The translations under genes were made by a program, and so were the position numbers. This document shows, piece after piece, positions 1-23,338 of a stretch of DNA of 64,000 bases. Below the pieces are notes generated by a model. It was not told where the DNA came from, searched no databases, and saw nothing but the letters and a program-made list of their open reading frames with translations. Origin of the DNA: Spizellomyces punctatus DAOM BR117 (taxonomy: Eukaryota); the NCBI GenBank assembly GCA_000182565.2, contig KQ257450.1. One strand, written 5' to 3'. The first letter of the stretch is position 1, and every line of letters begins with the position of its first letter.

Positions 1-1130
1 TGATATTGGAACTTAAGACTCCATTGTTGAGAGTTAAATCAGGAGACTGTGCTGTTAAGGATAATCTGAAATCACTGCCAACCCGTGTTATTCCTTGGGA
101 TGCTGTGAATATATCACGGATTGTATCACGACCTGACATTGCAAGCCCTGAATTCGCATCACATTTCAAACTCAATTGTATATCGTTCTGCAATCTCTCA
201 ATTCCATTGCTACATGTCAGTACATCTTTTATCGTATCTGCTTTGACCATTTGGAGACAACTACCAGCCTCGGCTTTTAACGATAGTACCACATCGTTAG
301 TTGTACCAGGTCTAATAGCAACTCCATTAAAATCCTGAAAAATCAGTCCTGAAACAAGTTGATTACCAATGATGCATATGGTCTGGTTATCAACCAAAAC
401 CCCAATCTCGCGCCGTCCACTAAACTCGGGGCCGATAGCAATTGCACCTGTTTGACTGCCTTGATAATACTGACTCAAGTAGTCCTTGGACACAGCATAC
501 GAGCCTCCACCGATTGCTGGTAATGTACCGCTCAATTTCACGTTAGGCACTCGTAACTCCTGTAGCGTTGTCGAATAGGTGAATGAAGGACTCCCACTGT
601 ATCCATAAGTCATGTTACCATACAGTATCTGCTCGTATCCTGGACTCTTCAAAGACAACTTGGAACCGGCTTGACTGAATGTAGAAGTGTCGGTCATGAG
701 TCGAATGGCAGTCGTATCTACCTCCCCTAAGACGTCTGTGAGTTCAGTCAGAGATGAGAAGCCGAAATCAAGCCAACTGCTTCCGATGTCAAGGATACTG
801 TCTGCTCCAGACGATGTCTTTATTGCCCCAAAAGCCTTGAATAGTTGACTTGTATTTGTTTCGAGTTCATCTGAACTGTTCACCTTCAAACTCTTGTGAA
901 GTTTGACACCGATTCCATTGTCACGATATAGTGGTTTCTTCAGCGTCTCTGGCGGTGGAGGGTCAGGAAAGTTGACAGAGAGTCCGTTTTCGTTTATGAT
1001 AAAACTATCATCTGCCAGTAAACCAATAGTCCTTGTATCTGCATCATGATATAATGGAAACTCGTAATTCAAAGGAACAACTGTCAATTTTCCATTATCC
1101 ACTTTCAATTCATCATCATCAATTTGTATA
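1..1130 (-). CDS. Fibre-like protein, paralog 2 (partial: N-terminus in gap, C-terminus beyond window start)
   Basis: Manual minus-strand translation IQIDDDELKVDNGKLTVVPLNYEFPLYHDADTRTIGL...SLTAQSPDLTLNNGVLSSNI aligns collinearly with the protein encoded at 4410-5530. Not listed in the ORF track. Confidence 0.85.
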
Positions 1131-1513
1131 NNNNNNNNNNNNNNNNNNNNNNNNNNNNNNNNNNNNNNNNNNNNNNNNNNNNNNNNNNNNNNNNNNNNNN
1201 NNNNNNNNNNNNNNNNNNNNNNNNNNNNNNNNNNNNNNNNNNNNNNNNNNNNNNNNNNNNNNNNNNNNNNNNNNNNNNNNNNNNNNNNNNNNNNNNNNNN
1301 NNNNNNNNNNNNNNNNNNNNNNNNNNNNNNNNNNNNNNNNNNNNNNNNNNNNNNNNNNNNNNNNNNNNNNNNNNNNNNNNNNNNNNNNNNNNNNNNNNNN
1401 NNNNNNNNNNNNNNNNNNNNNNNNNNNNNNNNNNNNNNNNNNNNNNNNNNNNNNNNNNNNNNNNNNNNNNNNNNNNNNNNNNNNNNNNNNNNNNNNNNNN
1501 NNNNNNNNNNNNN

Positions 1514-4500
1514 ACCCGAGGCTCCCATTGGTAAGTATACCTGTTCCATTAGTTGCAGCGTGGTATGTACCCCAAGAATTACTCGAAGCAGCATTGTTAC
1601 TAATCAGAATGGCCGTAGATGCTGTGGCACTTGAAGGCGCATTGATGACTATGGCAGCCAGCTGCAATCCTCCTCCACCTGCTCCTAGGGTTAGAGTTTT
1701 TCCTATGCCGACTCCACCTGATACCTGGAAAGCACCTGTTGTCACACTAGTTGAATTGGTTGTGTTTGGTATCTGCGTTACGCCTGTATTGGAAACTCTC
1801 AGAACGAAGCCTGTATTGTTATAAGAACTATTTAGACCGAATCCGCCTGCTGATAATGTTCCGTCTCCTGTGCTTCCGGCAACTCTCATGCCCCATGTAA
1901 CATTACTCCCAGTATTTACTAAGGACAATGTTGTAGATGCTGCGCCATTTTGAATGGTTATACCCCTGCCAACAGTGGCACTGTTAAATGATAGCGCAGT
2001 CGATGAGGTAATAAGAGGTTGATATGAGGAAAGTATATTCGATGTAGGAACAACTGAGAACCCTGTGGGTGTTCCCATGATGAAAGTGTTAGCCGCCGGC
2101 GTTAAACCGCTGATAGAATCGAGTAATGCAGACGCACTTTGTTTAGTAGCAAGTGCTGTATCTGCGGCGGCCTTGTTATTCTGAACAAGTGTTTGAAGCA
2201 AAGTCAAGGATTGACTAAGAGGACTTGTCATGCCGGTCATTGTAGCGACACTCCATTGTTGCGTAGCCACTTCGACTCCATTTTGAATGATCAGTCCTTC
2301 AACATTTAGATCATGTTCAACATGTAAGCCACCTGTCAAGAGTCCATTGCCTACATTATCTACTCGAAACACTATATCTGAGGTGCCTTGGACAAATATT
2401 CCACCACTCGTTGTTAGAGAATTAACATTCAATGCAGACGATGTAGTAAGAAGAGGTTGGAATCCCCCTAGAATTGTAGAGACAGGTGATACTGTAAAGC
2501 CCCCAGCAGTTCCCATGACGAAGGAATTCGGTGTCGTTGTTAAACCACTGATTGCATCGAGTAAAGGATTGGCATTTTGCTTCGTAGCAATGGATGTTGT
2601 TAGAGAACTTTCAGTAGCCAATTTCACTCCATTTGTGTATACATCCCCTCCAACGTACAGTGATTTAGCGATGCCAACTCCACCTTTCACCTGGAACGAG
2701 CCGGATGTTGAGGAAGTAGCATCAGTTGTCATATTGATAATAACATTCCCAGATGAGAGAATATCCAAATTCGAAGCCGTTGCATTATTTGTACCAATAC
2801 GCAAATTACTAGCGGAGGCTCGAATGATGTAGTCTCCAGCAACGGTATTTGTTACCCATTGACCTGCTGTTGCTGTATATCCGAATGATGCATTGTTTAT
2901 TTGAAAGGCGGCAGTGGCTGTAGTAGATATAATAGCATACTTTCCCATGTACACTGTGCCTTGCACTCCTAATCCACCGGGAATTTGTAATGCACCTGTT
3001 GTTGTAGAGGATGCATCATTTGTAGCATCCAGTGTAACGATTCCAGTGTTTGCCTGTATTGTTAGTCCTCTAGCGGTCTGTGCTTGAAGCCGAAGGTTAC
3101 CAATATTGTTTCTCAACGTCATTGCGTTAATCCCACCGTCCGAACTCCGGTTGTTTCCATTCAAAAACATCACTCCAGAACCCCCTGAAGCTGTTAGATA
3201 AAGAATGCTGCATCCGTTCGTCCCTGTACTCGGATTGCTTACGATAAGGGAACGTAAACCATTTACAGAAGAGGCTCCGACAGTTAGGTCACCCCCTACA
3301 ACGCACAAACCATTTGTGTCCACTCTTAGACCCAGAGATACTGCACTAGATGTCCGTCCGTAAATGTAAATCAGCTTGTCTTGTGCTCCTAACCACGTAG
3401 CAGCATCACTAGCATACCCTAAAAAACCAGAACCATCCAGACCCAGCCAAGACGATTTTGTACCGTCAAAACTATTTGAAATAAAGACAGACGAGCCTCC
3501 TGCTACAGAGGCGGTCGTTTGAACTCTGCTTCCTGTAATGACTTTCCCTGAGATATTGCTGCCAAATGTAACATTATTTGAAGTTAGATTAGTTATCTGG
3601 CTTCCGACCCAAGGTTTGATAACATCATTGTCGTAATCTCTTAACATTGAGAGATTGATCGCTTGCTGAGGGTATTCGTATTTGATGCCTCGATAACATG
3701 AAGGCATATCAAACAAGAGACGAGTACAACCTCCTATTGGATCAGAAGCAATTGTGACATTGCTCCCGGGTTCAAGTGGTGGCATGAAGGTAACAGGGTC
3801 TATTGGTTCATAAACGGGGTTTCCATCGCCATCGAGTATAGGTTGGCCTTCCGCATCTCGTTGAACCTTACGTTTGCATGACCCTCCGAAAATCATTCCC
3901 CAAGGGAACGTTGAGACGATTGGGAGGATGGAGTTTACAGCCATAGGGACTGTCAAGGTCGGGGAGACCATCGCTGGAAAAGGTACGGTTGATAATGGAG
4001 TTGATCCGGACAAAATAACAGTGTTGCCTGATGGAACATCCATTTTTAACACTTCTGCAGTATCAGTCTGTTCAGTATTATCGGTATCCCTTTGTTTCAA
4101 TAACAGCGTAGGGTCAATGAGTGTAAAGTTGTAGAGAGGGTAACTTCCTGTGATAATCAAGTTTGGACTGTTACTTACGAATTGTGGCGGAATCATGTTA
4201 TACTGAATGGTATTACCAACAACGACCACACTTCCGTATGAATTGGTCGAACCGACATAATTGCCCTTCAGAACATCCCCAACACGAAGAACTGTATCGC
4301 TTCCTGTAAGAGAACATGAAATCAAATCACCGGACACTTGCACTCCATTAATACCTCGGAGATTAGTAGACAAAACAGCACCATTCTTCTGGAGTCCAAT
4401 TCCCGCAGCGATGTTCGAACTGAGAACCCCATTATTGAGGGTTAAATCGGGTGACTGTGCAGTAAGAGATAACCTGAACTCATTGCCAATCCTGCTTACC

Positions 4501-5897
4501 CCTTGGGAGGCTGTAAAGGTATCCCGTATGGTTCCCCTGTTGACCATAGCCAAACCTGAATTAGCATCAACTTTTAGATCGAGTTGAAGGTCATTCTGTA
4601 CTCTCTCGATACCATTGCTGCAAGTAAGTACGTCTTTAATGGTATCTGCTTTGACCATTTGGAGACAACTGCCAGCCTCACATTTGAGAGAGAGCATCAC
4701 ATCATTGGTAGTCCCAGGCCGGATGGTGACTCCGTTAAATTCCTGGAAAATGTACCCACCTGTGAGTGCATTTCCAACAATTCTGATGGTCTGATTATCG
4801 ACCAAACAGCCAATCTCGCGTCGTCCGTTAAACTCGGGTCCCACTGCTATTGCTCCTGTTTGAGAGCCTTGATAAAATTGGGAAAGATAGTCTTTACTCA
4901 CTGCATACGACCCACCTCCAATAGCAGGAAATACTCCTGTTAATTTGACATTTGGTACTCTCAACTCCTGAAGCGTGGACGAATAAGTGAATGAAGAACT
5001 TCCCAAGTAGCCATAGGTAAGGTTCCCATACATGATTTGTTCATATCCGGGTGATTTCAGGGACAATCTCGAACCCGCTTGACTGAATGTGGAACTATCT
5101 ACCATTAGGCGAATGGCTGTGGTGTCTACTTCTCCTAACACATCAGTCATTTCGGTCAAACTATCGAATCCAAAGTTGAGCCATGAAGACCCGATGTCTA
5201 ACAACGTATCCGCACCTGAACTCGATTTCAGAGCGCCAAATGCTTTTAGTACCGACTGAATGTTAGTTTCCAATTCGTCATTATTGTTCACCTTTAGACT
5301 TTTATGAAGTTTGATTCCAAGGCCGCTCTGGTCACGATACAACGGCTTTTTCAGCGTCTCAGGATCAGGAAAATTAACCGATAGACCATTTTCAGTTATA
5401 AGCAAAGTATCATCTGCTTGTAAACCAACCGTACGTGATTCGGCATCCCTGTAGAGTGGAAAATCATAGTTATAAGGAATGACTGTTAATTTTTCATCCT
5501 CAACTTTTAGTTCATCATCATCAATGTTTAGGCTTACTGTTCGTGAGTCGGGAGCCCTATAGAGAGGTTGCAGGAGTGTCTCTGGTTTAACAGATAAGCC
5601 GTCTTCTGTTATAAGCAGAGTATCGTCTGTTACAAGCCTGACATCATGTTCATCATCAATTAATGGAAAAACATAAGTTGTCTCGGCAAGAGAGATGGTA
5701 TATTTACCTTTATTTTTCTGAATGGAGAGACTAGGCGTTTGACTATCCAAATCGAGTATAGTGACTATACCATCTTTATTCCGTAGGCTCTCTCCATAGA
5801 TAGAATTGGCTTTAACTTTTCCGGACTTGAAATTATCTAGGACTTCTAAATTTCTTCAAACCATATATGTGCCTTGAATGCTATTAGGCAAAGGCAT
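1514..5897 (-). CDS. Large virion fibre/spike-like protein, paralog 1 (>1460 aa; one in-frame TGA at 5856-5858; C-terminus in gap)
   Basis: ATG at 5897 (MPLPNSIQGTYMV*RNLEVLD...) is in frame with ORF 1119..5750. It has N-terminal PLYRD-type shaft-like repeats and three G/S/T-rich STTTGALQIPGGLGV-type repeats typical of viral fibres. Confidence 0.75.
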
Positions 5898-5955
5898 CTT
5901 CTTATTCCTTTATATCATCATAGCTTAGAAAATGAATTGCATGCCGACATTTGGT

Positions 5956-6654
5956 CTATACAATGTCATCAAAGATCGATGGTGGTTTGGTACGCATGAT
6001 ATCCCTGCCGGGATGCGTTACAGGCTCCGCGCGACAGGTATCTATTGCATACCGGGTTGTTCGAGTGTGGTGAACGGGGCGATTTCTCTTTTTTTTGATG
6101 ACTTTGACAACTTCCTCATAATCATCTGAAGAATCATCTTCTTCTTTGTCTGACGATTCCTCAACTACAATCTTCCGTCTTTTTTTCGGTATCAGCGTTT
6201 TAATTCTTTTTTTAGTCTTGTGACTATATGAAGTATTTTGTAAGTCCTCCTCAGCGCGGAGCCTAGCCTCGACACGTTTTTCCTGTTCCACCCTAAGAGC
6301 CTCGGCCTTAGCAAGAATCCTCTCCTCCTCTTTTCTCTTCTTTTCTAGTTCTCTCTCTTCTTTTCTCTTGGCAGCGAGTTCTCGTCTAACCTGAAGAGCC
6401 TTTTCTCGGGATTTTTCTAAATGTGCTCGCTGCTTCTCTGATGCAGTTCATTTTTTGGGAGCGCTGGCATTGACCTCTCTGGGATTGGCCGCTCCGTGCC
6501 CGGCATATTTGTTTACAAGTTCTTGAACATAGTCTTGATGATCATTGTCATTAGTTTCATCATCATCATTCAAACTTTGTTCTTCATCTGTAATGTCAGG
6601 CATGCCTGCCGGCATTTGGCTCTGCGCCAGCATAGATTCCTTTTTTTTAGGCAT
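5956..6654 (-). CDS. Charged coiled-coil viral protein (track ORFs 6448..6687 and 5956..6291 joined through an in-frame TGA at 6448-6450)
   Basis: Reads MPKKKES...APKK*TASEKQRAHLEKSREKALQVRRE...EQEKRVEARL in one frame. The KKRxxSEKQxxxLxKxRE pattern is one I recall from small proteins of PLVs and large DNA viruses. Confidence 0.7.
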
Positions 6655-6693
6655 TTTAGCTTGTAAATAGAAAATAAAAAAACCCAAATACGC

Positions 6694-7671
6694 TTAGCGA
6701 GGTTCTTTTGTCCATGATGATGGTATCTTATAAGAATTACTTGCCCACTCTTTCTTAAGTTCCTTGTGTACCTTACCATTTTTTCTAATCCAATTACCGG
6801 TTCTTGGATTGTAAACTTCCTGCAAGGATGAATCTCTCGGGTTTCTTCTCTCATGAAGCCTTGGCGATGGCTGCATTGTTGTGAAGTCAAATGTAGATGG
6901 AGACGGAGATGGTGAGTCATCCATCGGCGCTAGTGATGGTAAGCCTGAGGTTGGTGAATCAGATCACCTATGTAGAACCCATTGTGTAGGCGGCGTGCCT
7001 CCTTCCTCATAAAAGATGTTCTCAGACAACGCAGGAGTAGGTCGTATCACACCACGTTGCATGTTGTATTCATCTCTTGAGGCAGAAATATCAGTACCCC
7101 TAGTGCCCAAGCCAGTTGTTTCTAGCAAACTCTCCCCAGGATTGTGAATACCATGTGAAGAGCGGAAACGCTGTATGTCAGCCAATTCCTTACATTTTTC
7201 CTCTTTTATAAACTCTTCATAACCTTCGCGCATTCGTCGGATGCATGCAATCAAATCTATGTCATTTTTGTATCCTTCACTACCGTGGTTTATCGGATAC
7301 CTAGTTTCTTGATTAGCACTCGGAGCATTCATCCGGGTACGACCCTCCTGCATCTGTTTGAGTTCTGCATCAGACACAACGGGACAAAATGTATCAGGAT
7401 TCAAAGAGCGTCCATTTTCATCTCTCAGTTCACCAAAACGTCTATTATCAATTTCAATATAGTATGGGTCACTGACGAATTGTGTATCAACCTTACCAAA
7501 TGAACGATACTTGTTTAACAGCGGGTGCTTGAAATAGCCTGTAGGTAACTTTGAGTCAACCCATTTTCTTTTTTCTTTCCAGAACACATCATGTTCAACC
7601 TGCTCAGAGTTGTAAGCAGTTACATCAGTGTTACCTTGCTGTAATAGTTTTACTAATTCAGCAACAGACAT
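6694..7671 (-). CDS. Hypothetical viral protein with C-terminal NPxTGxxI motif (track ORFs 6964..7671 and 6694..6924 joined through an in-frame TGA at 6964-6966)
   Basis: Continuous frame ...WVLHR*SDSPTSGLPSLAPMDDSPS...; the C-terminal YNPRTGNWIRKNGKVHKEL resembles the 2-cysteine-adaptor-like motif of large DNA viruses. Confidence 0.65.
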
Positions 7672-7720
7672 ACCGTTCTATTCTGTATTTTACTATATAG
7701 TATTATTAAAAAAAAGAAGA

Positions 7721-7981
7721 ATGTCGTCTCAGCAAAGGAAGGAACGGATACAAGAGCATTTGAGGAAGAAGTTGGCTGAAAGGAATGAAGGGCAAGAAAT
7801 GGAAACAGTTCTTTCTCGAATTATAAGAGAACTGGAGGAACCTCGCATGCCTGAGCCGGCATTGGCATACAGTAAGGAAACCATCATCCCAGATGCTGAT
7901 GCGGGGGGTATTAACTGGAACGAATATGTTATTATTCATGAAAATCCTCTTTACAGTGATGACTTGAATGAAATCATTTGA
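7721..7981 (+). CDS. Small hypothetical viral protein (86 aa)
   Basis: ATG at 7721 follows an A-rich leader. The gene is divergent from the 7671 ORF and ends at a hairpin. Confidence 0.55.
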   Translation: MSSQQRKERIQEHLRKKLAERNEGQEMETVLSRIIRELEEPRMPEPALAYSKETIIPDADAGGINWNEYVIIHENPLYSDDLNEII

Positions 7982-7982
7982 C

Positions 7983-8003
7983 GCTACTTTTTCTAAAAGT
8001 AGC
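7983..8003. terminator. Palindromic hairpin between convergent genes
   Basis: GCTACTTTT-TCT-AAAAGTAGC is a perfect 9-bp stem filling the gap between stop codons at 7981 and 8005. Confidence 0.55.
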
Positions 8004-8004
8004 A

Positions 8005-8322
8005 TTAATACCCCGCTAATTCAACAGGAAGCGATTTCCTTAAGGCTGAATCAAAATTTTGTTGAATCTCATAGCCCCGCCCTAGACCTTTATGGAGATC
8101 ATCGATATAGCCTCGTCCTCGTGAAATTGTCTCTCTTACTTTGACGGGTACAGATTCGTCATGGACAAGAGATTGATGAACTTTCCCATAGATATCTTTG
8201 GCTTGTCCAGCATGGGCAACAAATTGTCTAATACCGTTGTTAACTTTGTTATAACTGTTCAGCACTCTAAGACCAAAGTTTTTTGCACTTGAGAGAAAGT
8301 TTGCGAATTTTTGACGCAACAT
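8005..8322 (-). CDS. Small amphipathic helical virion protein candidate
   Basis: 105 aa, directly downstream of the penton gene on the same strand, with an amphipathic N-terminus (FANFLSSAKNFGLRVLNSY). Confidence 0.6.
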   Translation of the reverse strand: MLRQKFANFLSSAKNFGLRVLNSYNKVNNGIRQFVAHAGQAKDIYGKVHQSLVHDESVPVKVRETISRGRGYIDDLHKGLGRGYEIQQNFDSALRKSLPVELAGY

Positions 8323-8357
8323 CTTTTACATGTTCCAAATGAAAAAAAAAAAAAAAA

Positions 8358-9101
8358 TTAATCATCTGCAAAGCCAGAGGAATGACAATCGAGAACTAAA
8401 GTGAACCCTTTGCCCTGTAGATCCAAGGGTAGCAATGTTTCAGCATCAAGCAAATGGATGTCGATCGTACTAACAAGGCCAGACTCCGTGTCAATGAAGT
8501 CGGTGTCAAAATAATTCTGCGCACATAGGACAGTTTCAATTTCTTGCGACACCGGAATAGAGGCAATGATATTTAAATCATCTGTGCCTGCATAAATGAC
8601 ATCATTTGACCTTATGTTAGATGAGGCTACGAGCACCATCTTAACGCCTGTCAGATCGATGGGATTTGAGAAGGTAATTGATGTCCCAGGGTCAGATTGC
8701 TGAGTTTGCTGCAATCCGAGCAGTTTGCTTGCTGTGGTTTGAGGGTAGAGAACTTTGAATGGTGTTGTACCCGCGGTCACTGTGATTTGACTGTTTATAT
8801 GATTGTATTCTACAGTGTATGCTTGCGTCCCAGTCGAGTTGAATCCAGCAGTCAGTGCATCGACCAAATCATCAGGGCTATATGTCCCAGGAGGAATAGC
8901 AAAAGTCCTTGCAGCATTACCCATCCCAGCATCATAAAAGGAGACAATATTGTTCTTTTCGTTTACTATGTCCCACGAAAGGGGCAAAATGATCGAATTG
9001 TATCGAATTTTATCACATGCGATGGGTTCGGCTAGAGTCCATTTAGGTTCATTCCTGTTTCCGTTCGTCGCCCTGTTGCTATCGAGAATCAACTTTTTCA
9101 T
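8358..9101 (-). CDS. Minor capsid protein (penton, single jelly-roll)
   Basis: PLV penton pattern: LILDS at the N-terminus, PLSWDIVNEKNN, IPPGTYSPDDLVDAL, NPIDL, IIASIPV and C-terminal IDIHLLD...PLDLQG.FTLVL. Confidence 0.85.
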   Translation of the reverse strand: MKKLILDSNRATNGNRNEPKWTLAEPIACDKIRYNSIILPLSWDIVNEKNNIVSFYDAGMGNAARTFAIPPGTYSPDDLVDALTAGFNSTGTQAYTVEYNHINSQITVTAGTTPFKVLYPQTTASKLLGLQQTQQSDPGTSITFSNPIDLTGVKMVLVASSNIRSNDVIYAGTDDLNIIASIPVSQEIETVLCAQNYFDTDFIDTESGLVSTIDIHLLDAETLLPLDLQGKGFTLVLDCHSSGFADD

Positions 9102-9149
9102 TTCTTCTAATGTATTATAGATACAGAGAGCAAATAAAAAACAAGCGCA

Positions 9150-9821
9150 ATGAAGGCTATTACAATATCACCCTTACCAAGTCAAGTCTCTGGACGCATA
9201 AAGGATAATACAGATCCACGGCTTCCTAGAAAGTATGGTTTTATTGTATACAATGGTGCTCGATTTTGTGGGAAGACGCTAAACATTGCAGTGATATGCA
9301 AATTGTTCTTGAAGAAGCAGTATTCGAATATCATAATTTTCACACCAAATCCACACGATACCAATTGGAACCCTTTAAGAACGAGCAAAAAGGTTCATAT
9401 ATTTGACAAGATTTCCAATGAAATACTCAATTTTATACACGAAGAGCAACTTTATGAATTTGTTCGAAGCGGAAGAAAATGAGATTTACTTCTTATCATA
9501 GATGACTACAATATGCAGAAAGGACATAAGAAGTCACTCGATGAGTTGGCTACACGGGGTAGACACGCTGGAATCACCTGCATCCTGTCGAGTCAATATT
9601 TTTATCACAATAGTCCCGCTGTCCGTAGCAATGCGACGAACTGGATCATTTTTAGACCTTTGAAAAGCGAACTTAAGAAAATGGTCGAAGCAGGCTTATC
9701 TCTCGCTTTACCTGAAGATGTATTTGAAAAGTTCGTTATGGATAATACAAAGAAACTGTTTCATTTTGTGCACATAAATCTACAAAGTTCGAAAAGACCG
9801 TTTAGAGTTGGTTTTTCGTAG
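9150..9821 (+). CDS. A32-like (FtsK-HerA) genome packaging ATPase, interrupted by an in-frame TGA at 9480-9482
   Basis: Walker A GARFCGKT; Walker B LLIIDD just after the TGA in the same frame; A32 signatures TRGRHAGITCILSSQ and SPAVRSNA. Confidence 0.92.
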
Positions 9822-9840
9822 GGGGACAGGCTGTCCCCCT
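9820..9840. terminator. Perfect hairpin at the ATPase stop codon
   Basis: AGGGGGACAG-G-CTGTCCCCCT is a 10-bp inverted repeat overlapping the TAG. Confidence 0.5.
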
Positions 9841-10001
9841 TTGACCCCCTCGCTTTGACAACCATTGTAACTTGTTAAGCTACACCGACTGAGTTCAGGC
9901 TATTTAGGACAGCAAACTCCTTTCCGAAAGGCACAATTTTTGATGTCACTTTTTCTTAAAAAGTGACGTTTTTTTTTTCTAGATGTGTAAGTTAAACCAC
10001 A

Positions 10002-11387
10002 ATGTCTTCAGGAATTCAGGTAACTGAGGTTCGACAAGTCCCAAACGTCTTTACGTATAAGCGCAATGCCAAGAACGGGGTTGTGCTGAATTTTCAGCCA
10101 TCTAGTCAGGTTCGCTTCGAGCCTACCAACGGATTGGGTGACTGTAACTTTGGCAGCAAAATCACTTTTAAAATAGCCGATGACAAGCGTTTTTGGCTTG
10201 TGAATGAAACCTTACATAAATATCGTGTCGTAGGGCTTGATGCAAATAGACAGGAAATCGTTTCTGCCACTGCAACCCACAGGCTATGTCAATCAGGAAC
10301 GGATGCTGTATGGAAACGCCAAAGTGTTCTTATTAATGGAAGGATCATCGAAGATCTCAATGATTATAATTTGTTCACCGCACATGAAAACGCTCTAACA
10401 TTGTGGGAAACCAAACAACATCTTGGGCAATGTGAATATTATTCGAGTGATGCGGCTAACGACCATTCAGCAGTGGTTGCTAAAAACAGGGCATACACTG
10501 TCACTGGCTCATCACTGTCATTCTTTCAAAATGAAGTGGCTTTCCCTCTCTGTCTTGTCAAAGGTGGTGTCCAGGTCGAGATGACTGCAGAGAGTGAACT
10601 TGCCAAAATTTTCCCCACATCCACAGGAATAGATTCATTCAAGATTGTCCAGAACGAACTCATTTGCCAGTTCGCCGAGCCCATACCCGAATACTACAAC
10701 AAGATCCTTAGCCTAATGGAGAGCAACGAATACTTGACCATCCCCATGCAAGTTGTGTGGAGTCAGGAGTTTGCTGGGCAAGCCAGTCGCGTACAGCAAT
10801 TGTCACTTGTGACTGGTGAGCAGTCCTCTGTTTCATCATTGATGTTGGTGACAACTGACAATGTTCGAACTGATGTAGACAAATTGAATTTCAGTGAAGA
10901 TGCTGGGATTAGAACAGTTAGTATCCAGGTGGGTATGCAGCGGTTCCCTGAGGGAAAAGCGATTGCCAACGGTTCCGCTTGTGCTGGTACTAATATTATA
11001 CCTACTGTAGATCCTGAAATGTATGCATTAAGCCAACGTAATAAAGATTTCAATGATGTGCGATTTGCCCCCACTATGTCCGATTTGGAAGGATGGGCAC
11101 TAGCAGGCAAAAAGATACAGCATTGGTCATGGAGGCAAAATTTCAAGCAAAGTCCAGATATGATCGGCGGTGGTTTGAATACTCTAGCCGATGGGCATAT
11201 TCTCATCAATGTGAGTCAATATCCCAACCCTCCGGAAGTAGCCGATTTCCCAAGCGAAAAACTAGAGGGTGATACGCCTAACCCCGATTATATCCCTACG
11301 TTCAAGGACAAGACATTCCATGTCTTCTGGACAACAGACCATGAGATGCACATCGACCGTGATGGTGTTCGCTTGTTACCAGCATAG
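10002..11387 (+). CDS. Major capsid protein (double jelly-roll, PLV type)
   Basis: 461 aa, beta-rich. VRFEPTNG...KITFKI and SGTDAVWKRQSVLINGRIIEDLNDYN match the PLV MCP N-terminal pattern, and the gene sits beside the ATPase and penton. Confidence 0.82.
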   Translation: MSSGIQVTEVRQVPNVFTYKRNAKNGVVLNFQPSSQVRFEPTNGLGDCNFGSKITFKIADDKRFWLVNETLHKYRVVGLDANRQEIVSATATHRLCQSGTDAVWKRQSVLINGRIIEDLNDYNLFTAHENALTLWETKQHLGQCEYYSSDAANDHSAVVAKNRAYTVTGSSLSFFQNEVAFPLCLVKGGVQVEMTAESELAKIFPTSTGIDSFKIVQNELICQFAEPIPEYYNKILSLMESNEYLTIPMQVVWSQEFAGQASRVQQLSLVTGEQSSVSSLMLVTTDNVRTDVDKLNFSEDAGIRTVSIQVGMQRFPEGKAIANGSACAGTNIIPTVDPEMYALSQRNKDFNDVRFAPTMSDLEGWALAGKKIQHWSWRQNFKQSPDMIGGGLNTLADGHILINVSQYPNPPEVADFPSEKLEGDTPNPDYIPTFKDKTFHVFWTTDHEMHIDRDGVRLLPA

Positions 11388-11449
11388 TTCAACAACAGGA
11401 ACCACGATGATTTTTTCTAAGCTTTGGTTAGGTAAGCCTCAAGAAGAAT

Positions 11450-11620
11450 ATGACAAAAACACATCGAAAACTCGTCAACGTATCGGCCATGCCGAATAAA
11501 GGACTTAGAGTGGCTGCTCGTGCAAGAAACAGGCGCATCATCGCTGCTAGAAAAGCCGCAGCAACACGTAAGCGACGCTACGGTTCTGGAAGAGTCATGA
11601 GGCGTGTTGTTTATGTTTAA
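11450..11620 (+). CDS. 56-aa Arg/Lys/Ala-rich core (DNA-condensing) protein candidate
   Basis: Manual translation MTKTHRKLVNVSAMPNKGLRVAARARNRRIIAARKAAATRKRRYGSGRVMRRVVYV*. No acidic residues; directly after the MCP; below the ORF-track cutoff. Confidence 0.7.
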   Translation: MTKTHRKLVNVSAMPNKGLRVAARARNRRIIAARKAAATRKRRYGSGRVMRRVVYV

Positions 11621-11785
11621 AAAACGGCGCCAAGAAATGCCAAGACTATGCCGGGCGCGGGGCGGCCAATCCCTGCAGGGATGCCAAGATTCTTTCCATT
11701 GAACGGAAGGGCGTCCCTGAGTACAAGCCGGTGGCATAAAAAGGCACTCGGTGTATCTTTTCTCCCATTAGCACGAGTATGGGTT

Positions 11786-11929
11786 TGAAACATCAGGTAT
11801 GATTCGAAACATTTAACCGAATCTGAAACATCAGATACGTGTTCTGAAACACGTGCCATAAATCTGAAACATCTAACCGAATCTGAAACATAGCTACATT
11901 TTCTGAAACACCTAACCGAATTAGAAACA
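11786..11929 (+). repeat. Array of 8 phased GAAACA motifs (period 19-21 bp)
   Basis: GAAACA starts at 11787, 11806, 11825, 11846, 11866, 11885, 11905 and 11924, several within a TAACCGAATCTGAAACA context. Confidence 0.85.
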
Positions 11930-12684
11930 TGTCCATTGCAAAGAGTCAATGGGGGCAAGTGACACACTTTGTAGGAGGCTTGCTACATCCCATAGCGTGT
12001 CGTGCTCTCAAGATGGGTCTAGAGGATCTCACCTTCGAGCAAAGCGAGTGTTTATTAGAAAATATGGCTGATAATCAGAAGATATATAAGGATGACAAGG
12101 AGTTGCTAGAATCACTTAAAGGTCATCTGAGACGACTCCTAAAGTGGAAGAAGCGAGAAGAGACTCAACGGAAATCTTCATCTCTCAAGTTAAAGAGGAA
12201 GTTTGAAGAGTTCGAAGAGTCCGATGGTGAAACCTTGAGTTCTGGTTCTTCATCTGATGCTGACGATTCCGATGATGCCGATGACAGCGATTACAGTCCA
12301 CAAAAGGCTAAACGCAGACGTGTCGAGAAAGAGAGTATGCCAGGCGCGGAGCGGTCAAGCCCGGTGCAGACCCATATCCCGGCGCAGAGCCATATCCCGG
12401 CGCAGAGCCATATGCCAGAAGGCATGCCGGAAGGCATGCCGGCAGGCATCCCGGCAGGCATCCCGGCAGGCTTTCCTGAGCCTGAGCGTGATGGGGAATC
12501 CGCTAATTTAGAGCAAATGCTCATGGAGCGTATCGAGCAGCAGCAGATGCAGATTAACGCACTCATAGCAGCTAGCATCCCTAAGCGCAGAAAGAGCGTC
12601 AAGGCTAAAGTGAGCGATCAGGACATTGTCCATGCTGATGTTATCAATCCTCCAGATGTAGGAAGCAGTAGCGCCGCTGCTTGA
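11929..12684 (+). CDS. Hypothetical viral protein with acidic tract, NLS-like basic motifs and (M/I)P(A/E)G repeats
   Basis: 251-aa ORF with 18-bp and 12-bp GC-rich tandem repeats at ~12372-12470. Confidence 0.65.
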   Translation: MSIAKSQWGQVTHFVGGLLHPIACRALKMGLEDLTFEQSECLLENMADNQKIYKDDKELLESLKGHLRRLLKWKKREETQRKSSSLKLKRKFEEFEESDGETLSSGSSSDADDSDDADDSDYSPQKAKRRRVEKESMPGAERSSPVQTHIPAQSHIPAQSHMPEGMPEGMPAGIPAGIPAGFPEPERDGESANLEQMLMERIEQQQMQINALIAASIPKRRKSVKAKVSDQDIVHADVINPPDVGSSSAAA

Positions 12685-12968
12685 TTCTCTTCAATTACCG
12701 TTGACACTCGCTAAAAAATCCATGAAATCAACAAAAAAAGTATGTCGTCCATTCGAAGAACGGACATGGAAACAACAAAACCAGAAAAAAAAAATACAAA
12801 ACGACAAAAACAGTCTGTAAAGGTGTTTTGTAGCACAATGTACATAGATATCCCTTTGTTTAGTATCATGTAGGGGCGTTGTTATAGAGCTTTTGTACAA
12901 CGTTTGCTAATAAACACACACGTTTAAACAAAGATAAATAATATTTTGTATACACAATATATTTTAAC

Positions 12969-13283
12969 ATGGGACGCAAATCAGGATCGATAAACACGAA
13001 GGATCGCTACAGGGTATACAAGATCGAAGAAGATGGTTCTAGAACATTTGTAAATGACTATCAGGCAGCCATAGAGATTGCTAACAGGTTAGGTGTCTCG
13101 CGCTCATACATTCATAATATAATACATGGGTTAGCAGAATCGCCTATTTCAAAGATGTATGCTATAGAAAAGTTACCATGTATACGAAAACCACCACCAC
13201 CTCCTCCTAAGATGAGATACTTTAAAATAAATCGAAAAGTGGCTATTCCTGATGATCCAGTAAAAGTTGCTCACTTCGCATGA
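12969..13283 (+). CDS. Small HTH (NUMOD1-like) DNA-binding protein
   Basis: FVNDYQAAIEIANRLGVSRSYIHNII fits a helix-turn-helix; basic N-terminus MGRKSGS. Confidence 0.6.
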   Translation: MGRKSGSINTKDRYRVYKIEEDGSRTFVNDYQAAIEIANRLGVSRSYIHNIIHGLAESPISKMYAIEKLPCIRKPPPPPPKMRYFKINRKVAIPDDPVKVAHFA

Positions 13284-13357
13284 ACATCATTCGAAGAACA
13301 AACACATTTAAAGCTTTGAAAATATTTATTTTTTAACACTATATATTTCTATTTACT

Positions 13358-16300
13358 ATGCCTTTGATTTTTGACCCAATCGCAAACAGAAACGTAAAAG
13401 AAGACTCGAAGCCTTTCGAGAAGATGATGCGGAAGATCGTCTCTGGAAACTTCTCATGTAAGAACTGGACTAAGAAACGACGAGAAGCACTAGAGAACCT
13501 TCAAATACATCGAGTACCAAGATTCCTACAATCTGAGCGAGAAAAAAGAATTGCTGCTGCGAGACGCACTGAGGCTCAAAAGCAGGCTATTGCTGAAAAG
13601 GCCAGAGAGACAAGAAGGCTTAATAAAGAAGCGGAAGAGCGCGAGATGAGAGAAATTCAAGAGAGGGCTCAGGCTGCTATTAAAAAGCGAAAGGAAGCCG
13701 CTAAGAAGGCTGCTGCCACTAGGGCTAAACGTAAGTATAATCTTCGAAAGCGTCAAGAATCATTCTCACCTTTAATATCTGTCAAAGAGATCAAAATCAA
13801 AGGTATCGGTTATACAAAGGAACTTTATCGGTTCAATCCAAAGTACACCTTCGCTACTCATGATGATATTGTTTCATTTTTCAATGATGTCATCAAGGAA
13901 TCACTTGTAGGCCTTGAATGCGGTGACAAAGTGCAAATAGGGTTTCAACATCAAAGTCTACACAATGGATTTTGGTCATCAAAAGTTGTATCAGTTAGTG
14001 ATCTGATTGCTTCTGATGTGATAGACGAAATTACTGCGAGAATGCAATCGGCTGAAATAGCATCAATCGATGAAAGCATGACTATCGAGGTGCGTCGTTT
14101 AGTTTCGGTAAAGGGCGGCGCCTTCAAAAACTATCATGACCATCTATCAGCACAGTCAAAAAGTTGTGTCATTGTTGTGAAAAACAATGGTAACGATTGT
14201 GGTATGAGAGCAGTTGCCTTATCCGTAGCATTCCATACGATGGATCACTCAACAAATGAATATGCGTACATCATGAAACAAAGAAAGCCACTGGACAAAA
14301 TTGTTACTAACTATTATGAAGGATGCGGGTTACCTGTTGGTCAGAAGATGTCTTACGGCGATTTTCCAAAGTTGGTTTCATTCCTCAAAAGGAACATCAT
14401 TATTGTTGATCTAGAGAATGGTGGTAAGCCTCTTATGGTCAAAGGTGTTAACAATGAGCGATACAATGAGAAACCTGCTACTATCCTATGTAAAGGGGAT
14501 CATTTCGATTGCATAACCAAGATTAACGCCTTTTACTGTGCATCGTATTTTTGTTTCCAATGCATGAAAGGACACAAGCATACCAATCATAAATGTGATA
14601 AGAAACGAGGATGCAACCTTTGTGGTCGGGTCACATGTAAACAAGGATCTCCCGATGATCTAGTGTTGTGTTTAAGTTGTAACTTAGGTCACTTTTCAGG
14701 AGATTGTGATGATTATCACAAGGAGAAAAAATGCGATAAAATATGGAAATGTAACAAGGAAGGCGGCTGCGGGCGTGTATTTGAGTGTGCTTATTATGAC
14801 GGTAATTGTGCTGAGTTACACAATTGCAACCACCATCTCTGCCGTCCTTGCAAGGCTTACGTCACTCCTGACCATCGATGCTTCATACAGAAAAAGAAAC
14901 CCAGAAAGCACATTAGCAAGATCATAGCATTTGATTTTGAATCAGAGTTTCTACATGATGGTGAACATCATGTAAAGTTTACGGATTGCAAGGTAGTTTG
15001 TACCGGTCTATGCCAATCTGTGTGCCAATGTCATGAGCATCACTCCTTCTTTGAATTTGATGCTTTTTATCAATTCATCTTCAAGAACCCTAATACAACA
15101 TTCATTGCTCACAATGGTCAGGGTTACGATTTCCACTTTCTCTTCAAAAAGTTCAATGACAACGGTGTTAAGCCTAAGTATATCTCAAATGGGTTGAAGA
15201 TCATTTCAATGGTGCTGCCCAAGTTCAACATCCGGTTCATTGATAGCATGTCGTTTTTGCCTATGGGACTGTCAAAGTTGCCTTCCATGTTTGGATTAGA
15301 GGAACATGTTCGTAAGGGTTACTTTCCACATTGGTTCAAATGTTCAAATGATTATAAAGGCGTTTTACCGTCTTTGGATGATTTCCGATTCGACAGTATG
15401 CCCTATGATAAACGCGCTGATGCACGACGCTGGTACAAGAAAACCCTACGCGAATGCATGAAGGGTAGGTATGTTTTTGATTACACTAAGGAACTTGTTG
15501 AATACTGCAAGAATGATGTCGATATTCTAGCAGCGGCCGTGAAATTGTTCCGAGAGCAATTCCTTGTAGCAACCGATGGTGAAATTGATCCTTGGGCTTA
15601 TAAAACCATAGCATCGGCATGTATGGGGACTTACAGGCATATGTTCATGCCTGAAGAAAGCATACCCACACATCATGAAGAAGGAATGTGGCGTCATTCA
15701 GACAAGGCTGTCCAGTGGCTCGAATATCTATGCGATAATGGCGTTCCAGATATGCGACATGTTCTACATGGTGGAGAGAAATGGATTGACTGATTAAATG
15801 GGAAAAAATTCTATGCTGATGGCTATTCTCCTTCGACAAATACTGTGTATGAATTTAATGGTTGTGAATTCCATGGGTGTAAACAATGCAAAGACGATGA
15901 TGCCGTTAATTATCGTGGTGTCCCTTATAAGTCTTTGAGACAATATACTGATAATAAGCATGAAAAATTGATTGCTCTAGGTTACAATTATGTCTCGATC
16001 TCAGAGTGTGAATATGACTCAAACAAGAAGATATGTGATTATGTTATGAGTAAAGACCTCGACATTGAATATATCCGACCTCTAGATCCTCGTAACGCAT
16101 TTTTTGGTGGTAGAACAAATGCCAGCAAACTTTACTACAAATGTTCTGAGAAGGAAAGAGTGAAATACTGCGATTTTACATCACTGTATCCTTGGGTAAA
16201 CGCTTTTGGAGAGTACCCCTGCTACTCGTTCCCCACAAGGATTCTTAACAACTTTGATGGCCAACTGAACTACAATGGTTTCATCAAGTGTCGAATAGTA

Positions 16301-17500
16301 CCCCCTCGTGGGTTATATCACCCTGTACTTCCTGCTAAGATTAACAACAAGACCATGTTTGTTCTTTGTAATAATTGTGCTGAAAAAGGAATCTCTGTTT
16401 GTCGCCACTCTGTTGAACAGAGGGCTTTTGTTGGGACTTGGTGCATTCCGGAAGTGAAGTTAGCGCTTTCAAAGGGCTATGTCATTTCTCAAGTTTATGA
16501 GGTTCTTCATTTCGAAAATACGGGATCTGATCTTTTCAAAGATTACATCTTCACATTTCTCAAAATCAAGCAGGAAGCATCAGGGTACCCTAAATGGTGT
16601 AAAAATGATGACGACAGAAAAAAGTATATTGACGACTACGAAAGCAAGCAAGGTATTCATCTTGATCCAGCCAAAATTGTCTACAATGAAGGATTACGTC
16701 TCGTGGCTAAGTTGATGCTCAATTCATTGTGGGGTAAATTCGGTCAAAAGAACAACATGCGTAAGCATATCACAATCAATGCTGAGGAAAATCCTGATGA
16801 ATACTACTCCATCATGTTCAATGATAAATATATTGTACACGACATTGTTGATTATGATAATGGTCGCACTTTGGATCTGTCATACTCCTTGCATAAGGCT
16901 GCTGTTCGTGATGACAAGAATACTAGTATTTTCATTGCTGCATACACTACCGCTTTGGCTCGTTGTAAACTTTACAGTGTTCTGGATACTGTAGGGGAAA
17001 AGGTGTTGTACTATGATACTGATTCTATTATATATGTTGATGATGATATAGGATCAACTGAAAAGACTTTGCCCTATGGTGATTATCTTGGAGACCTGAC
17101 AGATGAATTGAAAGGCGACCATATTGTAGAATTTGTTTCAGGTGGCGCTAAGAATTACTCTTACATTCTCAACAAAACGGGGAGAGCAAAGACGGTCTGT
17201 AAAGGCTTCGCACTTTCATATGAAAATGGACTCAATCTTGGACATGAGTCTATGAAGGATATAGTATTTAACCCTAGGTACATTGATGATGAAGGGATTG
17301 AGAAAGAGAGTTGTGTTAATTTTAACTTTAGCGAAATCAACATTAGTAAAACACACAGTGTGCGTAACAAGACAAAGATCATCATACCAGAAAAAAATAA
17401 CTCACCCAGCAAAAAGTACAAGTTTGTCTACGACAAACGTGTGGTTCAAGAATTTAACTCTGAGTCTAAGGTCATAGAGACACTTCCTTTCGGTTTTTAA
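13358..17500 (+). CDS. polB: Protein-primed family B DNA polymerase (single ~1380-codon gene with an in-frame TGA at 15791-15793)
   Basis: ExoI AFDFES, ExoII AHNGQGYD, ExoIII YCKNDV; polymerase motifs FFGGRT, DFTSLYP, KLMLNSLWGKFGQ, YYDTDS, KNYSY. The two track ORFs are in the same frame, separated only by one TGA. Confidence 0.95.
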
Positions 17501-17501
17501 A

Positions 17502-18602
17502 ATGGGGACAAAAACCGAACTAATCACGAAAGTTTACTATGATCCCAAGACTGGACTTCAGAGCATAGAAAAGCTCTACCAGAGACTCAAGGATCAGGGT
17601 ATTTCCAGAAAGGATATAAAGACATTCATCGACAGTCAGCATGTGCAACAAGTACACAAACCTCTTGTCAAGCCTAACTACATGCATATAACAGCCAATG
17701 GTGTTGATCACATATGGCAATCGGATTTGTGTGACATGCAGAAATATGCTACCTACAACAACGGTTACCGTTATCTGTTATGTATTGTAGACGTGTACTC
17801 TTGTTATGCCTTTGTTTTTCCTCTCAAGAATAAAACCAGAGAAAAGATTGCTGATTGTTTTACAAAGTTACTCGCTAGGCGGCGTCCTAAAAATATCACG
17901 ACTGATAGGGGTTCAGAGTACAACAACATTGTTTTTGAGCAATTGCTCAATAAGTATGGTATAAACCATTACATGGCTGAAGTTGCTGACCATAACCATA
18001 TGGGTCTGGTCGAAAGGTTTAATCGCACACTGAAAAGTGTTATCTCCAGATACATGACCGTATTTAAAACTAAGCGCTACATAGATGCTCTTCCTGACCT
18101 TGTTATGAACTACAATACTTCATATCACAGTCTATTGAAAAAGGCACCTGTCGATGTTGCTGATGGTGATTATATACGCGATAATAGCAAGGCTGTAAGT
18201 GATTTCAAGAAGTTTGACATTGGTGACCATGTAAGAATATTACTCAAACGGGATATTTTCAAAAAAGGATATGAGGCAAAATGGTCTGATGAAGTATACC
18301 ATATAGTCAATGTCGATGGCTATCGATTCGTAGTAGCATATGCCAATGGTAAAGAAATAGACCAGCATTTCAAATACTATGAATTACAGAAAACCAATGC
18401 ACCGATTACCGAGAAACCAGGTCATCGACCAGTAAAATTGACTAGAACACAAAAAGAAGTTCGCAAAGAAATTCGTCAGTTGGAGCCTGTACAAACACGA
18501 CCTACTAAAACAAGATTGCAACAGAAAAAGTTAAAAGTTCGTCCGAAGGGTACATTTTCACACATAGAAATTCCGCGGCGGAAGATGCCGGTGCAGATGT
18601 AG
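17502..18602 (+). CDS. int: Retroviral-like (rve, DDE) integrase of Polinton type
   Basis: YYDP N-terminus; catalytic WQSDLCDM / TDRGSE / VERFNRTLK; SH3-like FDIGDHVRI..FKKGY...WS; starts 1 nt after the polB stop. Confidence 0.95.
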   Translation: MGTKTELITKVYYDPKTGLQSIEKLYQRLKDQGISRKDIKTFIDSQHVQQVHKPLVKPNYMHITANGVDHIWQSDLCDMQKYATYNNGYRYLLCIVDVYSCYAFVFPLKNKTREKIADCFTKLLARRRPKNITTDRGSEYNNIVFEQLLNKYGINHYMAEVADHNHMGLVERFNRTLKSVISRYMTVFKTKRYIDALPDLVMNYNTSYHSLLKKAPVDVADGDYIRDNSKAVSDFKKFDIGDHVRILLKRDIFKKGYEAKWSDEVYHIVNVDGYRFVVAYANGKEIDQHFKYYELQKTNAPITEKPGHRPVKLTRTQKEVRKEIRQLEPVQTRPTKTRLQQKKLKVRPKGTFSHIEIPRRKMPVQM

Positions 18603-18962
18603 TCCATTTGAAGAATGGACATGAGGACCCCGGCAGGCATGCCGGGCGCGGAGCGGCCAATCCCGGCTGGTATGCCTCGAAGGTAATGTTGAGATGGGAT
18701 GAGTTCTGATGCCTGAGTTGCCTACATCTTCTGTGGAATTTTGTGTAAACAAGGAAACCAATGTTGCCATTTAAACATGTGGATATTTCTATTCTTTTTG
18801 CAATCTTGCTAGGAAAATGGGGACATTTCTCATCCCTACATGTCTCTACATAATTTTTTACTTTCCATAAGCTTCCAATTTTTACCATTGGTTTTATCCT
18901 GTGGCACTTTTTCCCTGGGAATATTTTTGATGAAATTGTCCCACAGTGCCTCACTTTGTAGT

Positions 18963-19779
18963 CAACTTACCTGCTTGTCGAGCAGCAGAGAATGTCATCG
19001 TTATCGACCCAAACAAGCGCGACATTCTCTACTGCCAAGACAGCAATGGTACGACATTTCGCTACACCGCCAACCAGCGAGCCGTGGAGACTGGAAGCCA
19101 GTGATTTGCAAAGAGACGAGAAGCAATGAAGGAAGAAGCTGGAGTTGATCTCATAGAATCACGAATACCATCCCACAAAACAATGAACCTCATGGACTTC
19201 ACTCGCTACCTTCTCGTTCGCCGCGCTGATTGGGATCGTCGCAAGGAATTCTATTCGCATCCTGCTCATACTCGATGGAAATGGCACTCCTTCATAAACC
19301 GTCAGAAGAGCGAATCAGACCTCATAAGTAACATGCGCAACAAGTACGGTGAAAACTTTACTGTTGTGATGGGTGATTGGAGCGATGCTGGTCGAACTGC
19401 AAAATTTCAGACCTCATCAAAGACAAAAGGCTGGCGCACCCTCTTTAAGCGGAACAGGATAAACTGCTTCCTTCTCGATGAGTACAAGACCTCATCTGTT
19501 TGCCCTCGCTGTTCATCCTCTGAGTTTGTCGAGAAAGGCTTCAAAGAACGACCTCATTCAAGACCTTGGCAGCGAGGCAAGGTTGAAAAAGTCCATGGAT
19601 TGCTGGGTTGTACCAACCCTAACTGTTTGCAGCAAGACTGGACGTTGAGAATGCGCTACTGGAACCGAGATACGCTGGCAACCTGTAATATGCTAACGAT
19701 CGTGCAATCAATGTTGGATGGACACGGTAGACCAGAGGTGTTCAGCAGGAGCAGCAGGAGTGTTCCAGCGGTAGCGTAG
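18963..19779 (+). pseudogene. Fz1: Fanzor1 (eukaryotic TnpB-family RNA-guided nuclease), 3' part only, with an in-frame TGA at 19102-19104
   Basis: The frame of ORF 19126 extends upstream as NLPACRAAENVIVIDPNKRDILYCQDSNG (RuvC-I Asp at 19006). Also present: VMGDWS, LDEYKTSSVCPRC (RuvC-II Glu + Zn finger), CTNPNC and WNRD (RuvC-III). Closely resembles SpuFz1 as I recall it. Confidence 0.93.
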
Positions 19780-19797
19780 CGTAGATTAGTTAGATTA

Positions 19798-19887
19798 GCT
19801 TTTCCGAACTGGTTGTCGCCGGTTCAATCCATGGTGCGGGTGCTAGTGCCAATACCCACCGGCTCCGCACTATCGACACCAGCAAGA
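19798..19887 (+). ncRNA. Fanzor1 omegaRNA (~75-nt scaffold ending ...CCGGCTCCGCACTA at 19872, plus predicted ~15-nt guide TCGACACCAGCAAGA)
   Basis: Lies just downstream of the Fanzor stop. TTTCCGAACTGGTTGTCGCCGGTTCAATCCATGGTGCGGGTGCTAGTGCCAATACCCACCGGCTCCGCACTA resembles the SpuFz1 scaffold/right end as recalled. Ends are approximate. Confidence 0.82.
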
Positions 19888-22827: not shown

Positions 22828-23338
22828 TAGATGTTGATCTGGTAGGCAGTCATAACAATAGTCGTAATGTATTCACAGAAATAGTAATATCAGTAAAGAG
22901 TACTTTATCGCCATGTCCTATTCCCTTATACGAATTGCGTCTCTCATTTCTCTTGTGTGATATGCTGATGCTCCAGGCACTAAGAAGCAAATGAAATAGA
23001 CATGCTTGTAGAGATCATGGCAACCGTAATAGCCTGTTGCGGACGGGCAAAAGAATGGTACACGGATAGATGGTAGTGGTCCACTAACATCAGCACGAGA
23101 TTAGATCGCGGACGAAGTGGATAAGCGGGCGCCGCGACAGAACTGCTTCCGATGAGGTAACCTGTGGATTCCGGAGGGTCGGAGGGTAAAGTGAAAAGTG
23201 ATATATCATCCTATCGGGGCAAGCGGGCGGGAATGGTAGGTCGTTTGTATCAGATTTTCCGGTCGCATCAGTCTACCGCCCGTAGTGTCATGCAGATGTT
23301 ATGGCCGTTTGCCAGATTGCTTTAACATGATTGATTCA

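Follow-up and report, generated by a model that had tools for sequence, protein, structure and literature searches.

A probable defective endogenous Polinton-like virus beside a truncated Fanzor copy in the chytrid Spizellomyces punctatus

The window analysed here is a stretch of 64,000 nucleotides from the chytrid Spizellomyces punctatus DAOM BR117 (contig KQ257450.1 of assembly GCA_000182565.2). Its first part, 1-18963, is very probably the right-hand ~19 kb of an endogenous Polinton-like virus (PLV; Preplasmiviricota) that belongs to a small family with several copies, this one being defective and not a replication-competent provirus. The element is real and ordinary for its kind, and both the kind and its presence in the S. 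punctatus genome are already known from the literature.

The virus-derived block is a compact run of long uninterrupted reading frames. Coordinate 1 is the edge of the window and not of the element, whose left end lies beyond the window start. The right end falls at 18962/18963, next to the remains of a Fanzor transposon gene. An earlier note, made from the letters of this DNA, had described the block as a Polinton-like virus with six gene classes: penton, A32 ATPase, major capsid protein (MCP), fibres, protein-primed family B DNA polymerase (pPolB) and rve integrase. All six are present, the fibres being identified on weaker grounds than the rest.

Public sequencing runs were compared with the window over 5900-24000. 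They comprise contigs from X1 and X2, the RNA-seq run X15, of which ~6% was read, and the chromatin immunoprecipitation (ChIP) library X16.

Capsid, packaging and replication genes

The genes that identify the element, and the features at its right end, are listed below with the open reading frames (ORFs) and the methods by which they were recognised.

8358..9101, minus strand: penton, a single jelly-roll vertex protein, ORF intact (AlphaFold2, Foldseek, VIA-align)
9150..9821, plus strand: A32-type DNA-packaging ATPase, in-frame TGA at 9480-9482 (Pfam Pox_A32)
10002..11387, plus strand: MCP, double jelly-roll, ORF intact (AlphaFold2 model and Foldseek)
13358..17500, plus strand: pPolB, 1380 codons, in-frame TGA at 15791-15793 (Pfam DNA_pol_B_2)
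17502..18602, plus strand: rve-family integrase, ORF intact (Pfam rve)
18603..18963, no strand: right terminal non-coding region (an X2 contig departs at 18962; the match to reads of other Fanzor copies begins at 18964)
18964..19779, plus strand: host flank, the C-terminal 270 aa of an SpuFz1-family Fanzor, TGA at 19102-19104 (phmmer against PDB 8gkh)

Because the MCP has no family at the level of sequence, its fold is needed to identify the protein. Its sequence matched 0 families in Pfam, and a profile search of the PDB returned noise only (E > 0.7). Capsid_N was touched by 3 of the 42 members of the MCP alignment, with a best E of 0.001. The AlphaFold2 model made from this alignment of 42 relatives has a predicted local distance difference test score (pLDDT) of 83.2 and a predicted template-modelling score (pTM) of 0.83. 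The earlier note had made its reading depend on a double jelly-roll at 10002-11387, and this is the fold that the model takes.

In a Foldseek search of the PDB, the top matches of the MCP model are the double jelly-roll capsids of PBCV-1 (Vp54, E 8e-17), SGIV and Sputnik, over a range of E from 8e-17 to 6.5e-12. Against BFVD the leading matches are MCPs of the type found in nucleocytoplasmic large DNA viruses (NCLDV), with E down to 7e-20. An Adintovirus capsid entry ranks 20th there, behind these NCLDV-type proteins. The predicted structure supports NCLDV/PLV-type capsids as the nearest to this MCP. In IMG/VR no relative of the window MCP was found; among the other IMG/VR scans, two alignments were too divergent for patterns, and the distant relative P0015 gave none.

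With a pLDDT of 68.1, from 10 sequences, the model of the penton is the weaker of the two. Its top matches are all vertex proteins, adenovirus penton base included, and the penton assignment of the earlier note is borne out to that extent. Foldseek places the mavirus penton 6g41 first (E 1.3e-6) and also finds the pentons of PBCV-1 and Sputnik. VIA-align gives Z scores of 12.7 for EhV-201, 12.5 for PBCV-1, 9.3 for Sputnik and 9.3 for mavirus.

The ATPase matches Pox_A32 at 24.8 bits (cut-off 22.8) over residues 36-179, and does so only when its TGA is read as X. This TGA, at 9480-9482, sits just ahead of a Walker B-like motif, LLLIIDD.

The replication and integration genes are recognised directly in Pfam. 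DNA_pol_B_2 (PF03175) matches both halves of pPolB, with E 8e-21 and 6e-25. At least 120 homologues of pPolB are listed, at 38-65% identity. The closest, 60-65% identical, are a Powellomyces protein (65%) and a protein on another contig. More than 100 further listed homologues are 38-44% identical over >89% of the searched region; the named animals among those listed are Nematostella, an octocoral, a spider, a lancelet, a reptile and a fish. The integrase matches rve with E 7.9e-17 and 61.8 bits (cut-off 32.6).

An OTU-like domain had been suspected by eye at the N-terminus of pPolB, from Cys/His motifs. It was rejected, as residues 1-547 matched 0 Pfam families at E <= 1.

Both gene sets by which a Polinton/Maverick-type element can be recognised are thus found in the block: a double jelly-roll MCP, penton and packaging ATPase on the one hand, and pPolB of Polinton/Maverick type with an rve integrase on the other. 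The earlier note had inferred a Polinton-type replication and integration module paired with a PLV-type capsid. The module and the pairing are seen in the window; as a novelty the pairing does not stand, since Polinton-type gene sets have been described with many PLV-type capsids in 28 viruses and at least 8 clusters (PMC7805220).

Animal Polintons/Mavericks and adintoviruses share with this element pPolB and rve, the A32 ATPase, the double jelly-roll MCP and the penton. The MCP here differs in that its sequence matches nothing in Pfam or the PDB and its structure is nearest to the NCLDV type. An adenain-like protease was not found in the part of the element inside the window. Adintovirus-type virion proteins are said to be restricted to animals (PMC8502044).

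Mavirus, the integrating virophage of Cafeteria, likewise has rve and pPolB, and its penton is the best Foldseek match of the penton here, whereas among the Foldseek matches of the MCP those of PBCV-1 and SGIV come ahead of the Sputnik-type MCP. This likeness bears on an alternative in which the family would be virophage-like satellites of chytrid giant viruses (Mycodnaviridae), their integrated copies acting as a reservoir or defence as mavirus does in Cafeteria. A penton structurally near those of mavirus and Sputnik, an MCP near NCLDV-type MCPs, and a weak two-cysteine adaptor motif in the ORF at 6694-7671 would agree with it, as would the report that PLV-like integrases occur in giant viruses of zoosporic fungi (PMC13533422). 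It is nevertheless unlikely: neither a gene nor a promoter motif of giant viruses was identified in the window, the element has its own Polinton/Maverick-type pPolB, and double jelly-roll and penton proteins resemble one another in structure throughout the realm.

Stop codons, CpG decay and silence

With TGA read as X, four genes of the element are single frames with one internal TGA each: the ATPase, pPolB, and the ORFs at 5956-6654 and 6694-7671. A fibre-like gene at 1514-5897 is possibly a fifth.

The origin of three TGAs can be examined by comparison, two of them in the element and one in the flanking Fanzor. All three appear to correspond to arginine codons, that is, to changes from CGA to TGA. 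At position 9480, in the ATPase, C (giving CGA) is found in 10 of the 11 X16 reads and in the single covering contig in each of X1 and X2. For the stop in pPolB, 12 homologues were aligned; the 2 closest have Arg at this place, and the other 10 are too divergent there to tell. The Fanzor stop at 19102-19104 aligns with Arg in SpuFz1.

The differences between the public runs and the window fit the same pattern. Of the 310 detected, 40 are listed and 27 of these lie in the element; 19 of the 27 are transitions, 14 of them at CpG. This points to CpG transitions as the main way in which the copies diverge, a process that would yield Arg-to-stop changes. 5-Methylcytosine (5mC) is stated to be restricted to transposons in Spizellomyces (PMC12695648, a study in which S. 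punctatus was sequenced by Nanopore). Together, the CpG bias of the transitions and the confinement of 5mC to transposons suggest methylation-driven decay at CpG.

Recoding or read-through of TGA was considered and rejected. TGA is the ordinary stop of three element ORFs, which end normally at it.

The element is transcriptionally silent in X15. Each of the 21 bins of 5900-18583 has an RNA depth between 0 and 0.21, against 90-180 for the two host-gene bins of 22208-23415.

Several points weigh against the view that this copy is defective. T is present at 9480 in only 1 of the 11 X16 reads; three near-identical copies map together, and the T of the window may have arisen in assembly. None of the 40 differences listed of the 310 falls at the TGAs of 15791, 6451 and 6964. 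Silence holds for a single sample and its particular culture conditions, from ~6% of one run. Pfam scans of the window ORFs turned up no family of maturation protease, the left part of the element being outside the window.

A second alternative is an intact inducible provirus whose TGAs would be draft-assembly errors or be read through, and which would have been latent under the condition sampled. The open ORFs of MCP, penton and integrase, the lack of frameshifts in the recognised element genes, the C at 9480 in 10 of the 11 X16 reads and the presence of assembly gaps nearby are compatible with it. Such a provirus remains improbable. TGA occurs in four to five separate genes, and the neighbouring host transposon carries the same type of change, so a mutational process fits better than random sequencing error. 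The three ORFs that end at TGA argue against recoding, and the reads with C at 9480 can derive from two sibling copies.

The earlier note had gone on to propose a virion-forming, integrating mycovirus. The integrated PLV is upheld; this copy is probably not functional as it stands, given the stops inside its ATPase and pPolB genes and the near absence of RNA reads.

Insertion, copies and published relatives

The right end of the element is defined by a Fanzor gene. The flanking frame at 18964-19779 matches 8gkh, the S. punctatus Fanzor SpuFz1, with E 2.8e-173 and aligns to its last 270 residues. The N-terminal part has been cut off by the element, and the flank is therefore not a full-length RuvC-containing TnpB-like protein. 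The cut falls in mid-frame at 18962/18963.

Other copies of this Fanzor provide the undisturbed arrangement. Their reads match the window only from 18964 onward, and upstream of this point they have one common sequence, which continues the Fanzor frame. DNA depth over the Fanzor flank is 110-288, against ~4-6 per strand class nearby, which shows that the flanking Fanzor is a high-copy family. The Fanzor-family repeat extends to about 19.9 kb.

On the other side, an X2 contig tracks the element to 18962 and then enters unlike sequence. It is read as a sibling copy with another flank. The breakpoints in reads and contigs, taken together with the Fanzor frame, place the right terminus at 18962/18963 and indicate insertion into a transposon copy. 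The boundary of 18962 given in the earlier note agrees with the read breakpoint at 18962/18964, and its claim that the block is physically joined to a chytrid genome holds, with the Fanzor cut in mid-frame and a sibling that passes into other flanking DNA after the same last base. Contigs of X1 and X2 over the host flank have 0 differences from the window; those over the element are either identical to it or 1-3% different. The exact window MCP is also on record on a contig of 2,242,449 bp.

A free or episomal viral genome misjoined to host sequence by the assembler is very improbable: related Powellomyces hirtus capsid genes do lie on separate 10-21 kb contigs, and stand-alone MELD virus genomes were assembled from a Powellomyces dataset (PMC8502044), but the junction here cuts the Fanzor ORF exactly in frame with the other copies, the sibling departs at an identical point, a contig of 2.24 Mb carries the MCP, the CpG-type decay and the nonsense codons are what residence in a chromosome would lead to, and DNA depth is no higher in the element than in the host flank (~4-6 per strand class in both, in X16, a ChIP library whose depth is not a copy-number measure).

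The earlier note had called the block AT-rich, and its G+C content is in fact lower than that of the host DNA (0.42 in 1-18900 vs 0.48 in 19000-57700), by a modest difference. The CpG observed/expected ratio is 0.78 in the element and 0.87 in the host part, a mild drop that is non-discriminating alone. A within-window comparison found no further pieces of the element elsewhere in the window. No inverted repeat that pairs with the right terminus was found inside 1-22000, the left end being outside the window.

The history of the element as a virus can be outlined from the families involved. The ancestral virus would have had a linear double-stranded DNA (dsDNA) genome replicated by its own protein-primed polymerase. 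The A32-type ATPase would have packed this DNA into an icosahedral shell of double jelly-roll MCP and penton, with long fibres at the vertices, and the rve integrase would have allowed entry into the host chromosome. The copy in the window landed inside the coding sequence of an SpuFz1-family Fanzor transposon copy. Later C-to-T changes at CpG appear to have made TGA stops out of Arg CGA codons in the ATPase and in pPolB; two or three other genes were probably hit as well. Decay and silencing may both reflect the treatment that the host gives to transposon-like DNA through 5mC.

The genome carries more than one copy, as the earlier note had suggested should be checked. The window MCP is 97% identical to SPPG_07208 of the same strain. 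A cluster of MCPs at 90% identity has three S. punctatus members on three contigs (the window MCP, SPPG_07208 and SPPG_05630). A diverged MCP, SPPG_05487, is 67% identical (78% over matched stretches), and a penton, SPPG_09548, is 92% identical and lies on a fourth contig. Judged by these sequences, three scaffolds or more each carry a near-identical capsid gene, the MCPs being 97% or more identical, and diverged copies exist besides. Relatives are also found in Gaertneriomyces, in Powellomyces (on many 10-21 kb contigs) and in Geranomyces. Identity to the P. hirtus homologues is 44-71% for MCP, 56-63% for penton and 65% for pPolB.

Elements of this kind were in print by 2021, and the possibility raised in the earlier note that the element was undescribed does not survive. 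Bellas and Sommaruga (2021, Microbiome 9:13; PMC7805220) report one PLV integrated in a large S. punctatus contig. Their "S. punctatus group" comprises 27 viruses, which they suggest are dsDNA viruses of fungi, and 52% of its members are stated to have a chitinase gene. Pfam scans of the window ORFs found no chitinase family, part of the element being outside the window. The published PLV and the present element share the host species and assembly, a place inside a large contig and a novel PLV-type double jelly-roll MCP. They differ in that the paper describes one element, whereas at least three near-identical MCP genes and diverged copies are found here. The window locus may or may not be the PLV that it reports.

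Starrett et al. (2021, Virus Evol 7:veaa055; PMC8502044) describe six Powellomyces MELD viruses with fibre-like genes. MELD viruses 1-6 resemble the present element in having a host in the Spizellomycetales and large fibre-like genes beside the capsid genes. They were assembled as stand-alone genomes from a Powellomyces dataset, some with non-PolB replicases, whereas the element in the window is chromosomal, has nonsense codons and encodes a pPolB that directly matches PF03175. A 2026 preprint (10.64898/2026.06.19.733378) places chytrid ATPases among "Aquintoviruses".

What the window adds to this record is the exact right junction in a Fanzor copy, a divergence mainly by CpG transitions with Arg-to-stop changes, and silence in one data set. 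Literature searches returned no paper stating the Fanzor junction, the CpG-type stops or the silence, in the parts of the papers that were available; some of this may be contained in the supplements of PMC7805220.

A wider idea can be put forward tentatively, as something that may well prove wrong. The S. punctatus and Powellomyces family would consist of dsDNA mycoviruses that truly form virions, bear adenovirus-like fibres and remain active in the Spizellomycetales. One sibling copy would be intact and inducible, 5mC-driven CpG decay would be the means by which the host contains the family, and the window would show this decay under way. If this were true, S. punctatus, a transformable, genetically tractable model chytrid, would be the first organism in which a Polinton-like virus of a fungus could be studied in the laboratory. 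To our knowledge, dsDNA viruses of fungi are almost unstudied. The presence of several recent PLV copies in S. punctatus is a possible experimental entry point, a point that was already in print in 2021.

Fibre-like genes and minor features

The remaining features of the element are the fibre-like genes, several small ORFs and an assembly gap.

2..1130, minus strand: fibre-like gene A, partial, an open frame that runs off the window start, its N-terminal part lost in the gap
1131..1513, no strand: assembly gap of 383 N, an N run between the two fibre-like genes
1514..5897, minus strand: fibre-like gene B, an ORF of at least 1461 aa, G/S/T/N-rich, C-terminus inside the gap
5956..6654, minus strand: 232-aa Lys/Glu-rich ORF, in-frame TGA at 6451-6453, no Pfam family above noise
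6694..7671, minus strand: 325-aa ORF, in-frame TGA at 6964-6966, weak two-cysteine adaptor motif after the stop
8005..8322, minus strand: 105-aa ORF, no Pfam or PHROG match
11450..11620, plus strand: 56-aa Arg-rich ORF (from its translation, ~30% Arg/Lys), directly after the MCP gene
11929..12684, plus strand: 251-aa acidic, Ser-rich ORF, no Pfam match
12969..13283, plus strand: 104-aa ORF, weak helix-turn-helix signal (Pfam HTH_3, E 0.0027, below cut-off)

Fibre-like genes A and B are tandem paralogues of ~1460 aa, with a period of 4408 nt. Positions 137-1128 of A and 4545-5530 of B are 73-76% identical in nucleotides at a spacing of 4402-4408. If the ATG at 5897 is the start of gene B, an in-frame TGA lies at codon 14. 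The two genes have no Pfam match and no PDB sequence match. In the Atlas they gave leads to phage tail-fibre clusters only, with scores of 0.84-0.88 (all < 0.9). Size, composition, position and published relatives are all that points to fibres, and they do so weakly.

Among the small ORFs, the one at 6694-7671 matches Pfam 2C_adapt at 19.3 bits over residues 287-308, below the cut-off of 22. The ORF at 8005-8322 is possibly a minor virion protein, and the 56-aa product of 11450-11620 may be a DNA-condensing core protein.

Two sets of short repeats occur in the element. A 26-nt direct repeat is present three times at 11806-11930, directly upstream of the ORF at 11929-12684 (copies spaced by 60 and 39, with 85-96% identity to the first one), and is possibly a promoter element. 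A separate GC-rich motif of 26 nt occurs four times with <=3 mismatches, at 6481-6506 (minus strand), 11648-11673, 12337-12362 and 18639-18664, where 0 are expected by chance. It is confined to the element and always lies in the sense of the local genes. Since its copies fall in differing reading frames and in non-coding DNA, it is likely to be a signal at the level of DNA.

Just 3' of the Fanzor stop, at 19791-19873, thousands of RNA-seq reads match ~30 nt and then diverge on both sides. There are 5803 reads with a loose end at 19791, and the bin depth is 342. Rfam and tRNA scans of 18500-24500 and of 1-24500 found nothing. The matching stretch may belong to some abundant RNA made by other copies of the repeat.

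Farther to the right, a host gene at 21468-22610 encodes a calponin-homology domain (Pfam CH, E 2.8e-18). Its 55-nt GT..AG intron at 22601-22655 is spliced in 34 RNA reads, in keeping with the intron-containing fungal neighbours described in the earlier note. An 814-nt direct duplicate with 99.4% identity is found at 58027-58839 and 61622-62433; both copies abut an N gap, and the duplicate either arose in assembly or is a repeat of recent origin. DNA depth is also raised at 23416-24000 (~31 per strand class vs 4-6), pointing to another repeat family.

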